Source: Roseiarcus sp.
Lineage (GTDB): Bacteria > Pseudomonadota > Alphaproteobacteria > Rhizobiales > Beijerinckiaceae
Assembly (NCBI GenBank): GCA_036489975.1
Contig: DASXES010000053.1
Span: 21,506-85,505 of the forward strand
Direction of reading: 5' to 3'
DNA: 64,000 bases
The notes beneath the pieces are model-generated. The model saw only the letters and a program-made list of their open reading frames with translations. It did not search any database and had not been told where the DNA came from. Made by a program: the position numbers and the translations under genes. Shown piece by piece: positions 4,244 to 64,000 of the stretch (position 1 is the stretch's first letter; every line of letters begins with the position of its first letter).

Positions 4244-5389
4244 TCACTCGAGGATACGGATGCGCGGCGCTGGCTTTGCGCCCGTTGCGCCGGTTGCGAG
4301 CGTGTCCGCCACCCGTCGCGCGATCTCGAGAAAAGCGTTGGCTTGCGGGCTCTCCGGCATGCTCGCGACCACGGGTCGCCCGTCATCGGAATTCACGCGA
4401 ATGGTGATGTCGAGCGGCACTTCGCCGAGGAACGGAACGCCAAGCTTTTCGGCCTCCTTGCGCGCCCCACCGTGCGAAAAAACATCTGTTCGTCCGCCAC
4501 AATGCGGGCAGACGAAATAGCTCATATTCTCGACCACGCCGAGCAGCGGAATTTTGACCTGGTTGAACATCGCAATGCCTCGACGGGCGTCGATGAGCGC
4601 CAGATCCTGGGGCGTCGACACGATAACCGCTCCCGCCAGCGGCACGTTCTGGGCCATCGTCAGTTGCGTGTCGCCAGTGCCCGGCGGCATGTCGACGACG
4701 AGCACGTCGAGTTCACCCCAAACGACCTCCCGCAAGAGCTGGTTTAGCGCCGAGACCACCATCGGTCCGCGCCAGACCACCGGCGCGCCCTCGTCGATCA
4801 GGAACCCGATCGACATCACCTTGACCCCGAAGCTTTCGAGGGGAATGAGCCTCTTGCCGTCGGGCGCCAAGGCTGGCTTGGAGTTGATCCCGAACAGCTT
4901 GGGCATGGAGGGCCCGAAGAGATCAGCGTCGAGAACTCCGACTGCAAGTCCGAGTTTGGCGAGGCCCACGGCCAGATTGCAGGCCACGGTCGACTTCCCC
5001 ACGCCGCCCTTGCCCGAGGCGACTGCGATGATGTGCTTAACCCCGGGCAGCGGTTCGCTCGGGCGCCCGTGCCGGACTGGCGGCGCCTTGCTCTCATGGG
5101 CGTGCCCGGCATGGGCATGACCCGGCGATCCGCTCAGGGTCCGCGCCGACTCGGCGGTCAGTGTCACGACTGCGCCCGCGACGCCCGGAATTGCTCTGAT
5201 CGCGGCCTCGGCCTGAGCCCGCATCGGCTCCATCGTCTTGGCCCGCGCCGGATCGATGGCGATCGCGGCGAAGACTTTGCCCTCACGAATGGTGATGCCG
5301 GAAATCGCCCCGGAATCGGGCAGAGAGGCGCGTCCGTCCGGGCCGGGAATCCCCGCCAGCGCCGTCATGATCTCGTCGCGAGAAACCAC
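4244..5389 (-). CDS. mrp: Mrp/ApbC Fe-S cluster carrier ATPase
   Basis: VASGKGGVGKST, WRGPMV, DMPPGTGD and ENMSYFVCPHC motifs. Confidence 0.95.
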   Translation of the reverse strand: MVSRDEIMTALAGIPGPDGRASLPDSGAISGITIREGKVFAAIAIDPARAKTMEPMRAQAEAAIRAIPGVAGAVVTLTAESARTLSGSPGHAHAGHAHESKAPPVRHGRPSEPLPGVKHIIAVASGKGGVGKSTVACNLAVGLAKLGLAVGVLDADLFGPSMPKLFGINSKPALAPDGKRLIPLESFGVKVMSIGFLIDEGAPVVWRGPMVVSALNQLLREVVWGELDVLVVDMPPGTGDTQLTMAQNVPLAGAVIVSTPQDLALIDARRGIAMFNQVKIPLLGVVENMSYFVCPHCGGRTDVFSHGGARKEAEKLGVPFLGEVPLDITIRVNSDDGRPVVASMPESPQANAFLEIARRVADTLATGATGAKPAPRIRILE

Positions 5390-60782: not shown

Positions 60783-61013
60783 TCAGCAGGGGGCGCACCA
60801 GCAACGCCAGCGGCCGCACACCCGGTGGTGCCACGGGCCGCAGAACCGGCCCCAATGAGGACCGCAGGCGGCCTTTTCTACGGGGGTGAAATTCTTGGCC
60901 GGCGCCGCGAGCGCCGCGGGGCCGCGCTCCATCTGGGCGCTCGCGCCCGAAATCAGCGCCCCGCCCATCGTGAGCGCCGCCGCGCTCGCGAGCGCAATCG
61001 CCAGTCTTCGCAT
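60783..61013 (-). CDS. Small secreted peptide with a 6-Cys, Trp/Arg/His-rich C-terminus
   Basis: GGAGGA RBS; signal peptide; CGPHWGRFCGPWHHRVCGRWRCWCAPC. Confidence 0.75.
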   Translation of the reverse strand: MRRLAIALASAAALTMGGALISGASAQMERGPAALAAPAKNFTPVEKAACGPHWGRFCGPWHHRVCGRWRCWCAPC

Positions 61014-61221: not shown

Positions 61222-61788
61222 TCACGAGCTCGTGTAACTGATCGCGGAGTAGAAATTGTGCCCGTACATGGCGATCGCCCGCGCTTTGTCCAGACCGTTG
61301 ATGATCCTACGGGCGTTCACCCAGTCCTCTCTCGTCGTGCTGAAATAATCGCTCAAGGACTTGCCGGTGAACAGTCCCTTGAACATGCCAAGGAACATGA
61401 TGTTGGTCGCGTTGCCGACCTCGAGCGCCATCTCGGGATGGTCGACGAAGTCGACGCCCAGCAAGTCTGACATGGTTTTGTAATTGCGCTCCCAGGTCAA
61501 TTGCACGAAACCACGGCCATAATAGACGGCGCCGGTCGCCGGATCAGGCTTTCCGTATGGCGTCCCGCGACCTTTGCCGTATTCCTCGATCGGCTGCATG
61601 TGCTGGTCGGTTTCATGGTACGTCGTTGCCAGCGCGTAGGCGAGCCAGCGGTCGTCGCTGTTGGCATATTTGGCCTCCCAACCATCGAGAATCGCATTCA
61701 TCCCATCGACCTGCGATTGCTGGAGGGTGTTGGCGAACATCACCCGGCGCGCCTGAGTGAAGAAAAACCCACGATTGATCCGAGCCAT
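61222..61788 (-). CDS. Glycoside hydrolase family 19 phage-type lysozyme/endolysin (orphan)
   Basis: LAYALATTYHET, YYGRGFVQLTWERNY and ARRIING motifs; no signal peptide. Start refined to ATG 61788 (ORF open to 61860). Confidence 0.85.
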   Translation of the reverse strand: MARINRGFFFTQARRVMFANTLQQSQVDGMNAILDGWEAKYANSDDRWLAYALATTYHETDQHMQPIEEYGKGRGTPYGKPDPATGAVYYGRGFVQLTWERNYKTMSDLLGVDFVDHPEMALEVGNATNIMFLGMFKGLFTGKSLSDYFSTTREDWVNARRIINGLDKARAIAMYGHNFYSAISYTSS

Positions 61789-61866
61789 TCGAGCCCCCAA
61801 AAGACAGGCGATATCATTTGTGATTATCAGCATATTATTCTCACCTCCTAAATATCGCAAGAAAAT

Positions 61867-61881
61867 GTTCCGTATTTGTTC
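61867..61881 (-). promoter_or_regulatory. Alphaproteobacterial LexA (SOS) box upstream of the GH19 lysin
   Basis: The + strand reads GTTC-cgtattt-GTTC (GAAC-N7-GAAC on the lysin sense strand), in an AT-rich promoter region. Confidence 0.85.
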
Positions 61882-61982
61882 TAATCAGCGTTAACCGTGG
61901 ATCTCGGCGCCGGGAGTGGCTAAGGCTGCGGCTGATTGGCTCGCCTTCGCCGGATGCGAGGCCGGGATTAGGGAGGCGCCCC

Positions 61983-63083: not shown

Positions 63084-63098
63084 GAACATAATGCGAAC
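63084..63098 (+). promoter_or_regulatory. LexA (SOS) box upstream of imuA
   Basis: GAAC-ataatgc-GAAC, 18 nt before the imuA ATG. Confidence 0.9.
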
Positions 63099-63116: not shown

Positions 63117-64000
63117 ATGTCGCCAGGCGGCAGAGCGGAGGGGATGGCGCGTCTCAGGCGCGTCATCGCCGAGATCGAGGCGGAAGCCGGCCCGGCGGGC
63201 GGCCCCCCGGGCGACCGGCCCGCGCGGCGCCTGCCGCTCGCGCGCGCTTTTGATTCCGCGCTGAGCGGCGGGCTCGCCGGCGACGCCCTGCATGAGATTG
63301 TCCCGGCCAAGCCTCAGGACGGGGCGGCGGCGATGGGCTTTGCGCTGGCGCTCGCCGCGCGGTTCTTGAGCCGGCGGCCGGCCTCGGCCCTCATCGTCAG
63401 CGAAGGCTTCGCCGATCAGGAGTCGGGCGCACTCCATGGGCCGGGCCTGGCCGCGCACGGGCTTGTCCTAAGCCGCCTCGTGTTCGTGCGCGCCCCCGAC
63501 GCGGCCATGGCCTTCTGGGCGATCGAGGAGGCGCTTAAATACGGCGCGCCGGCCGCGGTCGTGGGCGAGATCTGGAATCTCAAGGGCTACAGCCTCGCCG
63601 CCTCGCGCCGCCTTCTGCTCGCGGCGCGGAAGGGCAGGGTCCCCGCGCTCCTCGTCCTCGCCAGCGCCTATGGCCAGGCCGGGCGCCTCTCGAGCGCCGC
63701 CGAGACGCGGTTCGAGATCGCCGCCGCGCCGAGCGCGCGAATTCCGGCCGCCGCCGGCCCCGACCTGCCCGGGCCCTTCGCCTGCGGGGCGCGGCTCGTC
63801 AAGGCGCGGCTCGCGCGGGCGGGGCCTTTTCAGGCTTTCGATGCGGATCGCGTTATTCGTCTCGAATGGCGAAGCCAGGACCTGACCTTCAAGGACCTGA
63901 CCCTCCAGGATCTGGCCCTCAAGACCACGACTTTCAGGGATGCGGCCTTTGACGACCCGGCGATTTCTCTCCCTCTGGCTGCCGCGTCTGGCGACCGACC
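63117..64000 (+). CDS. imuA: ImuA mutasome protein (runs to the window edge; missing from the ORF track)
   Basis: My translation gives FDSALSGGLAGDALHEI, GPGLAAHGL..RLVFV, WAIEEALK, AVVGEI, AASRRLLLAA and SAAETRFEI. SOS box upstream. Confidence 0.88.
   Translation, partial: MSPGGRAEGMARLRRVIAEIEAEAGPAGGPPGDRPARRLPLARAFDSALSGGLAGDALHEIVPAKPQDGAAAMGFALALAARFLSRRPASALIVSEGFADQESGALHGPGLAAHGLVLSRLVFVRAPDAAMAFWAIEEALKYGAPAAVVGEIWNLKGYSLAASRRLLLAARKGRVPALLVLASAYGQAGRLSSAAETRFEIAAAPSARIPAAAGPDLPGPFACGARLVKARLARAGPFQAFDADRVIRLEWRSQDLTFKDLTLQDLALKTTTFRDAAFDDPAISLPLAAASGDR

Follow-up and report, generated by a model that had tools for sequence, protein, structure and literature searches.

The window analysed here, a stretch of 64,000 nucleotides from Roseiarcus sp. 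(contig DASXES010000053.1), carries on its minus strand a gene for a phage-type lysin of glycoside hydrolase family 19 (GH19), preceded by a predicted operator for the SOS repressor LexA (Table 1). On one side of the lysin gene lie aroC, a SnoaL-like gene, a metallophosphatase gene and a gene for a Cys-rich secreted peptide; on the other side lie trmO and imuA. We detected no phage gene among these neighbours and no holin, spanin or integrase nearby. All neighbours were housekeeping or host genes, in keeping with the orphan setting that an initial annotation of this DNA had described. No intrinsic terminator or structured RNA was found between the lysin gene and the peptide gene (z = -0.75).

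Table 1. Features of the lysin gene and its upstream region in the window.
Feature	Position	Strand	Basis or remark
LexA operator (predicted), GAACAAATACGGAAC on the lysin sense strand	61867..61881	-	Exact match; extended context tAGAACA...GGAACAT
Putative -35 element, TTGCGA	61855..61860	-	6 nt downstream of the box; conserved block in 18 upstream regions; ortholog consensus CTGGCA
Putative -10 element, TAATAT	61832..61837	-	17 nt after the -35 element; TATGAT/TATAAT block in orthologs (consensus TATGAT)
Conserved 5' leader block, GATAATCACAAAT (consensus rAAATCAGAAt)	61816..61828	-	18 upstream regions aligned
Probable ribosome-binding site, GGGGG (GAGG in orthologs)	61794..61798	-	5 nt before the ATG
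Coding sequence of GH19 / phage-type endolysin	61222..61788, including stop codon	-	188 aa; open reading frame list, with the start from a homolog alignment
Catalytic region, from H-E-T (general acid Glu59) to I-E-E-Y-G (Glu68/Glu69)	61576..61617	-	Invariant in alignment A1; aligned with GH19 chitinase C

The open reading frame (ORF) on the minus strand at this site spanned 61222-61860, with its best-read start, MARINRGFFF, at 61788 and its stop at 61222. We placed the start of the lysin at 61788 because all homologs in our alignment (14/14; alignment A1) begin at MxxINR and a longer N-terminus has no support elsewhere. An N-terminal extension or signal-arrest-release (SAR) domain beginning at the ATG at 61836, which is preceded by AGGAGG, was rejected: it was out of frame or absent in other species, and the ATG falls inside the conserved -10 block. 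Both the ATG and the AGGAGG lie inside the putative promoter, and this ATG is probably not a start codon.

The lysin matched the PHROG_181 endolysins over nearly its full length (residues 21-209, E = 4.9e-30) and GH19 chitinases in the PDB at E-values down to 1e-7, with HET, the glutamates of IEEYG and YYGRGFVQLTW aligned. HET (E59), IEEYG (E68/E69) and YYGRGFVQLTW were invariant in A1 and aligned to chitinase C and 2cjl, and the residue signature of GH19, that is, a general-acid Glu, a second Glu downstream and YYGRGxxQL(S/T)W, is present. The Pfam model PF00182 matched only partially (residues 108-145; 24.4 bits, below the gathering score of 25.5), and a precomputed PF00182 match exists for most close homologs; the sub-threshold match is a borderline score and not the mark of a different family. 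An AlphaFold2 model had a predicted local distance difference test score (pLDDT) of 80, and every listed PDB fold match was GH19 or GH19-like. The best of these, at TM-scores of 0.60-0.65, were 9ms7 (a soil phage endolysin), 7f88 (a loop-less chitinase) and 4ok7 (the SPN1S endolysin), with weak Foldseek E-values, 2.5e-3 at best. TseP, an effector of the type VI secretion system (T6SS), was also among the PDB matches.

Lysin homologs annotated as endolysin or GH19 were present in 312 phage records, 295 of which covered at least 80% of the query; the full-length homologs of Rhizobium, Sinorhizobium, Ruegeria and Acinetobacter phages were 43-45% identical to the lysin. We found no signal peptide, transmembrane (TM) segment or N-terminal hydrophobic segment in the protein, and no T6SS context or carbohydrate-binding module at the gene. 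The GC content of the gene was 57.3%, compared with 64.8% for the window. The PHROG_181, PDB and fold matches, together with the hydrophobicity check, uphold the earlier description of a GH19 phage-type lysin without a signal peptide, and the protein is predicted to be a catalytically intact, globular, single-domain phage-type GH19 peptidoglycan hydrolase.

Upstream of the lysin gene, positions 61867-61881 read GTTCCGTATTTGTTC on the plus strand and GAAC-N7-GAAC on the lysin sense strand, 79 nt before the ATG, exactly the perfect box that the initial annotation had reported at this place and distance. GTTC-N7-GTTC is the LexA motif of Alphaproteobacteria (PMC3323433), and its presence in the promoter region, by which members of the LexA regulon are recognized, holds for the lysin gene. 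The same annotation had likened the box to the one before imuA; the two boxes do share their orientation, but not their spacing, which was 78 nt to the ORF start for the lysin and 18 nt for imuA (box at 63084-63098, ORF start at 63117). As to imuA itself, a box ending only 18 nt before the annotated start at 63117 may mean that the true start lies further downstream or that the mRNA is nearly leaderless.

The window held five perfect boxes against 1.9 expected, a marginal excess, as 5 out of 100 shuffled sequences also reached five. The significance of the lysin box therefore comes from its matrix score and its conservation, not from the raw count in the window. Across the genome (5.53 Mb, 64.8% GC), we counted 164 perfect matches, about 30 of which had AT-rich spacers and the extended consensus aGAACA-N5-rGAACAt. 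Boxes with AT-rich spacers preceded recA, uvrA/ssb, parE, imuA, two DnaE-type polymerase genes, rmuC/def and a radical-SAM gene; the box of lexA itself had a GC-richer spacer and was joined by a second, imperfect site. We built a LexA matrix from ten of the genome's own SOS sites (recA, uvrA/ssb, parE, imuA, dnaE, rmuC, lexA and others), leaving the lysin out. On this matrix, the lysin box scored 23.8 bits and ranked 20 genome-wide, with imuA at 23.9 bits and lexA at 19.3 bits. Our literature search returned no paper linking LexA with GH19.

To follow the box and its setting through related genomes, as the initial annotation had suggested, we used 27 close orthologous loci (at least 79% identity) from a scan of a genome collection, two from Roseiarcus sp. 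and the rest from metagenome-assembled genomes (MAGs) of soil. At 20 out of 27 loci, the sense strand had a perfect GAAC-N7-GAAC box, which preceded the lysin ATG by 74-98 nt, and the loci were mostly syntenic and set among host genes. The spacers varied between orthologous boxes (AAAAACA, AAACACA, AAAAAGT, AAAACAT, AAATAGT and others). When 18 box-type upstream regions were aligned, GAACAA and GAACATTTT were invariant, whereas the flanks were scrambled. The lysin coding sequences had a median ratio of nonsynonymous to synonymous divergence (dN/dS) of 0.079 at a dS of 1.07 (255 pairs). At a dS of about 1.07, neutral sites are saturated, yet the box has been retained, which argues that it is kept by selection; the median dN/dS argues the same for the protein.

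Close lysin orthologs occurred in about 25 of the 101 genomes sampled from the genus, all in the subclade nearest to the genome of the window, as judged by identity of the large terminase (TerL). They formed a monophyletic clade (support 99/98) with a Lichenihabitans sequence as sister. Homologs outside this clade were found in other Alphaproteobacteria, Bacteroidota, Acidobacteriota and other groups; none was preceded by an alphaproteobacterial-type LexA box, and the motifs of other phyla were not scanned. It is well supported by the comparison that the lysin gene has been inherited vertically within the subclade under strong purifying selection.

The trmO start in the window is 102 nt away, on the far side of the box. 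The usual gene order in the orthologous loci was aroC-SnoaL-metallophosphatase-(peptide)-lysin-trmO-imuA. At seven loci, trmO lay 0.7-1.1 kb from the lysin, and the box still stood about 90 nt before the lysin, with none at trmO; at one further locus (L065), neither trmO nor imuA was nearby, and the box was again about 90 nt before the lysin. No box preceded trmO in two syntenic loci where the lysin had a different promoter. The lysin-less relative G024, which has trmO, about 1 kb of DNA, the peptide gene and the metallophosphatase gene in this order, had neither lysin nor box. Because the box follows the lysin where trmO is distant or missing, and because the empty site is boxless, the operator belongs to the lysin; regulation of trmO by the box is ruled out by the same loci. 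The description of a domesticated single-gene lysin wired directly to LexA is thus well supported in silico, by vertical inheritance, a dN/dS of 0.08, a high-scoring operator beside the putative -35 element in 20 out of 27 loci and a box that tracks the lysin. The case for placing the lysin in the SOS regulon is as strong as comparison of sequences allows.

The aligned upstream regions also suggested a promoter, its layout judged from conserved blocks: the box, 6 nt (ATTTTC), the putative -35 element, 17 nt, the putative -10 element, the leader block, GAGG and the ATG. A separate conserved stretch, gATTAA (61889-61896, minus-strand sense), which is similar to a CtrA half-site, precedes the LexA box by 8-9 nt.

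A search for genes of gene transfer agents (GTAs) led to a head-tail cluster outside the window, at about 32.8-64 kb of contig C96 of the same genome (C96:32854-64000; loci L126 and L127). The cluster begins with a small-terminase-like gene (206 aa), TerL, an Xre/RES toxin-antitoxin pair, a portal gene and a protease/scaffold gene, and continues with a 490-aa capsid-like gene (phrog_13692), an adaptor, a tape measure and tail proteins, including a GTA_TIM domain, an NlpC/P60-like protein and a 2369-aa fibre-like ORF. No HK97 capsid Pfam match was found in the cluster, and the head module was not detectably like that of RcGTA, the GTA of Rhodobacter capsulatus. TerL was present in 96 of the 101 genus genomes at 66-93% identity, and a flanking host gene was conserved in G044 and G054, which points to vertical inheritance of the cluster. 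The toxin-antitoxin pair, an Xre-like helix-turn-helix antitoxin and a RES-domain toxin between TerL and the portal gene (L126:5105-6240), is also present in G044 and G073 and is hence conserved in at least three species.

Perfect LexA boxes preceded the first gene of the cluster (C96:32854, rank 4) and the protease gene (C96:39254, rank 1), and these were the best-scoring boxes among those left out of matrix building. The box and promoter of the first gene were near-invariant in 27 out of 30 relatives (GAAC-N7-GAAC, aaaagc, TTGCGC, 17 nt, CATAGT). A layout of box, 6 nt, TTGNNN, 17 nt and -10 element occurred at 3 out of 28 top-scoring sites, namely the lysin and the two cluster promoters. LexA sites have been predicted in silico in the GTA cluster of D. 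shibae, and RcGTA depends genetically on LexA (PMC6473078, PMC9638019). That LexA operators lie directly on a GTA-type cluster may in itself be a finding.

Considering these results together, we put at roughly 60% the probability that the lysin is a LexA-repressed, damage-induced cytoplasmic enzyme that lyses the cell once the membrane has been breached. According to this model, the gene would have entered the chromosome between trmO and the block of Cys-rich peptide and metallophosphatase genes in the ancestor of the subclade of this Roseiarcus-like genus, and would have been inherited vertically since. In an undamaged cell, LexA bound at the upstream edge of a sigma-70-type promoter (TTGCGA, 17 nt, TAATAT) would keep the gene off. 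DNA damage would cause RecA-stimulated self-cleavage of LexA, the promoter would become free and cytoplasmic synthesis of the lysin would begin. After a breach of the inner membrane, by a holin-like or other membrane-damaging factor or by the damage itself, the lysin would cut the wall and the damaged cell would lyse. The likeliest use would be the release of cell contents, probably including GTA-like particles, whose LexA-boxed operons share the promoter geometry of the lysin. The initial annotation had proposed sub-population suicide, eDNA supply or wall remodelling as possible purposes; joint induction with the LexA-boxed particle cluster would be more specific than these. Damaged cells would thus probably burst on purpose, perhaps releasing phage-like particles under the same switch. 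Enzyme family, selection, operator quality, conservation and the link between operator and lysin were established in silico; from these, we infer LexA repression, lysis and the coupling to particles.

Several results weigh against this model, beginning with export. The initial annotation had asked how a lysin without a signal peptide would reach the periplasm, and the problem is real: we found no holin, pinholin, SAR domain or spanin for the lysin, and our searches gave no conserved holin partner. The only TM-bearing ORF near the lysin was that of the Cys-rich peptide, by virtue of its signal peptide; no spanin-like gene was recognized among the flanking genes, which were inspected without a dedicated spanin model. 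A comparison of 53 distant homolog loci gave no partner gene that was conserved beyond close kin. Two holin candidates elsewhere in the genome were rejected: a 114-aa protein with three TM segments whose gene follows a LexA box on contig C105, found in only 2 of the 101 genus genomes, and a 109-aa ORF with three TM segments after TerL, found only in its own genome and, broken, in G074. Nor is the promoter a textbook case, as a strict consensus promoter scan called none at the lysin and the operator is upstream of the putative -35 element and not over it, the promoter itself being deduced from conservation. Seven of the 27 orthologous loci lacked the box, and four lysin copies were broken, by a stop at Q3 in two genomes and by frameshifts in two.

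The boxless copies have a pattern of their own. At six of these seven loci (L046, L047, L053, L056, L057 and L082), we found TGTGA-N6-TCAC, a CRP/FNR-like site, 90-140 nt upstream of the ATG. Five of the seven lay outside the syntenic block, one of them adjoining a tRNA gene. In the protein tree, the boxless copies were nested among box-type sequences, which indicates that the promoter has been exchanged within the genus; the control of a single gene has been rewired, with a LexA box at some loci and a CRP/FNR-like site at others. Among the broken copies, the identical CAA-to-TAA change at codon 3, in an otherwise open frame, occurred at L062 and L064 (positions 5007-5009 in each; genomes G055 and G042), and the frameshifts were in G003 and G103. 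The broken copies suggest recent or recurrent inactivation of the lysin.

The part of the model that concerns particles borders on a narrower explanation, that the lysin is solely the dedicated release enzyme of LexA-controlled GTA-like particles, an off-cluster locus of a multi-locus GTA with no other role. The promoter geometry common only to the lysin and the two cluster promoters speaks for this, as does the RcGTA precedent for an off-cluster lysis locus (PMC5026251). We saw no integrase, replication, repressor or lysis gene in the assembled cluster up to the contig end; C96 stops 1.2 kb past the cluster, leaving room for a cluster-borne lysis cassette. Among genomes at least 90% complete, all those with an intact box-type lysin (8/8) also had the capsid-like gene (intact in six, damaged in two), whereas five out of six with a CRP-type, neither-type or nonsense-bearing lysin lacked it. 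G054 and G073 have had the head module deleted and have lost the TerL box, and in G054 the lysin has a non-SOS promoter.

Against this, TerL occurred in 96 of the 101 genomes and the lysin in only about a quarter of the genus (about 25 genomes), so most clusters need another exit. The capsid-like gene was present in 60 of the 101 genomes, with many copies fragmented. In the less complete MAGs, no capsid-like gene was found in five out of six carriers of a box-type lysin, and in G112, where the lysin promoter is of the CRP type, the capsid-like gene is intact. The co-occurrence counts come from fragmented assemblies of kin genomes and are not independent. A coupling between lysin and cluster is therefore plausible but weak, and release of particles as the only role of the lysin, though possible, is not what we would expect.

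We hold as doubtful the still more specific proposal of a GTA-like system under direct LexA control, in which the two operator-bearing promoters would drive the cluster and a distant GH19 lysin, recruited later with the same promoter design, would supply the exit, either without a holin or with one yet to be recognized. If it were true, this would be the first GTA-type element with production and lysis both wired straight into the SOS response, so that damage would lead to altruistic lysis and DNA donation.

An SOS-induced role other than suicide, such as a weapon against neighbours released from a few dying cells, wall remodelling or recycling during filamentation, or a chitinase-like activity, would account for the lack of an export route or holin. 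GH19 includes chitinases, TseP appeared among the PDB matches, and the CRP/FNR-like promoter swap in six loci shows that the enzyme is useful under other signals. We nevertheless consider such a role unlikely: the closest characterized relatives are phage endolysins and not chitinases, the signal peptide, T6SS context and carbohydrate-binding module are all lacking, and a cytoplasmic muramidase has no obvious substrate. That the gene is a decaying prophage or tailocin remnant, its box a leftover, a chance match or an element serving the divergent trmO, is very improbable and was already disfavoured, since its low GC (57% against 65% for the genome), the four broken orthologs, the marginal count of perfect boxes in the window and the trmO start 102 nt from the box are set against a dN/dS of 0.08 with saturated dS, eight core bases and a following ATTTT that are invariant in 18 box-type upstream regions with randomized flanks, a box that accompanies the lysin even at loci where trmO is far off or lacking and is missing at the lysin-less empty site, and host genes syntenic on both sides.

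Damage-triggered lysis by the lysin, our preferred model, has partial counterparts in known systems. In Pseudomonas aeruginosa, the endolysin Lys drives SOS-linked explosive cell lysis (PMC4834629). Lys (PA0629) and the lysin are both phage-derived chromosomal endolysins of the GH19 fold without an export signal of their own; Lys, however, is part of an R/F-pyocin tailocin cluster with the holin Hol and is induced in a RecA-dependent manner (PMC4834629). The lysin, by contrast, has only housekeeping genes around it and a LexA operator to itself, and our searches gave no holin for it. Expression in the DNA damage response and lysis of a sub-population that releases contents or particles would be common to both, which for the present lysin is a proposal drawn from sequence. 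The induction of Lys runs through the PrtR/PrtN relay. The structure of the P. aeruginosa GH19 endolysin (9eoi) was a weak fold match to our model (TM-score 0.47) and was absent from the sequence matches at E-values up to 1.

RcGTA has its endolysin and holin at a locus apart from the cluster (PMC5026251). This locus, rcc00555/rcc00556, resembles ours in that the endolysin lies far from a particle cluster, in our case a probably vertically inherited one, and has host genes on both sides (PMC5026251, PMC9638019). The RcGTA endolysin is co-regulated with its cluster (PMC5026251, PMC9638019); ours may be so too, through the box and promoter geometry that it has in common with the cluster. The RcGTA endolysin differs in having an adjacent holin and in being regulated by GafA and CtrA, with LexA acting indirectly via cckA (PMC5026251, PMC9638019), whereas the genome studied here has LexA boxes directly on lysin and cluster and yielded no holin. 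By analogy, the lysin may act as P. aeruginosa Lys and the RcGTA lysis locus do, but we place it outside both arrangements because there is no cluster around it, a holin is lacking, its LexA operator is direct and the similarity in sequence is only distant. The PHROG_181 endolysins of Rhizobium, Sinorhizobium, Ruegeria and Acinetobacter phages share its single-domain architecture along the full length at 43-45% identity, but theirs are genes of phage genomes, whereas the lysin gene is fixed in the chromosome and carries a site for a repressor of the host.

The enterobacterial colicin operons with lysis (kil/BRP) genes are a further parallel: there, too, LexA has an operator directly on a gene for lysing the producer and thereby releasing a product, although lysis by the present enzyme is proposed. 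Those operons are LexA-repressed and plasmid-borne and have a gammaproteobacterial-type LexA box, and their lysis protein, a small lipoprotein, acts by activating a phospholipase and is not a muramidase.

SOS-linked self-lysis by domesticated phage lysins in Pseudomonas pyocin clusters is already known, as is lysis-dependent release of GTAs. The lysins of the known cases come with a holin and are under no more than indirect control by LexA; here, a lone endolysin has kept a LexA operator to itself in about 20 species. If confirmed, the lysin would offer a clean and minimal system, amenable to genetics, in which to study altruistic lysis triggered by DNA damage in soil Alphaproteobacteria, and possibly the first directly SOS-controlled GTA-like system. 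It would also allow a test of how an endolysin gets to the wall when it has no cognate holin.

Downstream of the lysin, at 60783-61013 on the minus strand of the window, is the gene for the secreted peptide, which is 76 aa long and rich in Cys, Trp and Arg. It was present in 25 of the 101 genus genomes, 15 of which have no lysin, and was not found in about 15 lysin carriers; this independent distribution rules out the peptide as a partner in a lysin module. A search for another LexA-boxed endolysin in the genome gave no PF00959 match and a single GH108 gene with neither box nor holin; GH108 was the one further family of phage-type lysins found in this genome.

The rejected holin candidate on C105 (C105:1942-2283, minus strand; locus L194) is of interest in itself. 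The 114-aa protein, perhaps holin-like or a division inhibitor similar to SidA, has a charged tail, and its gene has a TTGACG -35 element and a LexA box overlapping the -10 element. Several high-scoring LexA boxes had a common motif 8-15 nt downstream (C76:53661, C52:7740, C22:29502, C70:90927, C69:62599, C37:6082, C41:3178 and C105:2341). Several of these copies had no obvious gene behind them, and they may represent a repeated SOS promoter element or small unannotated SOS genes.

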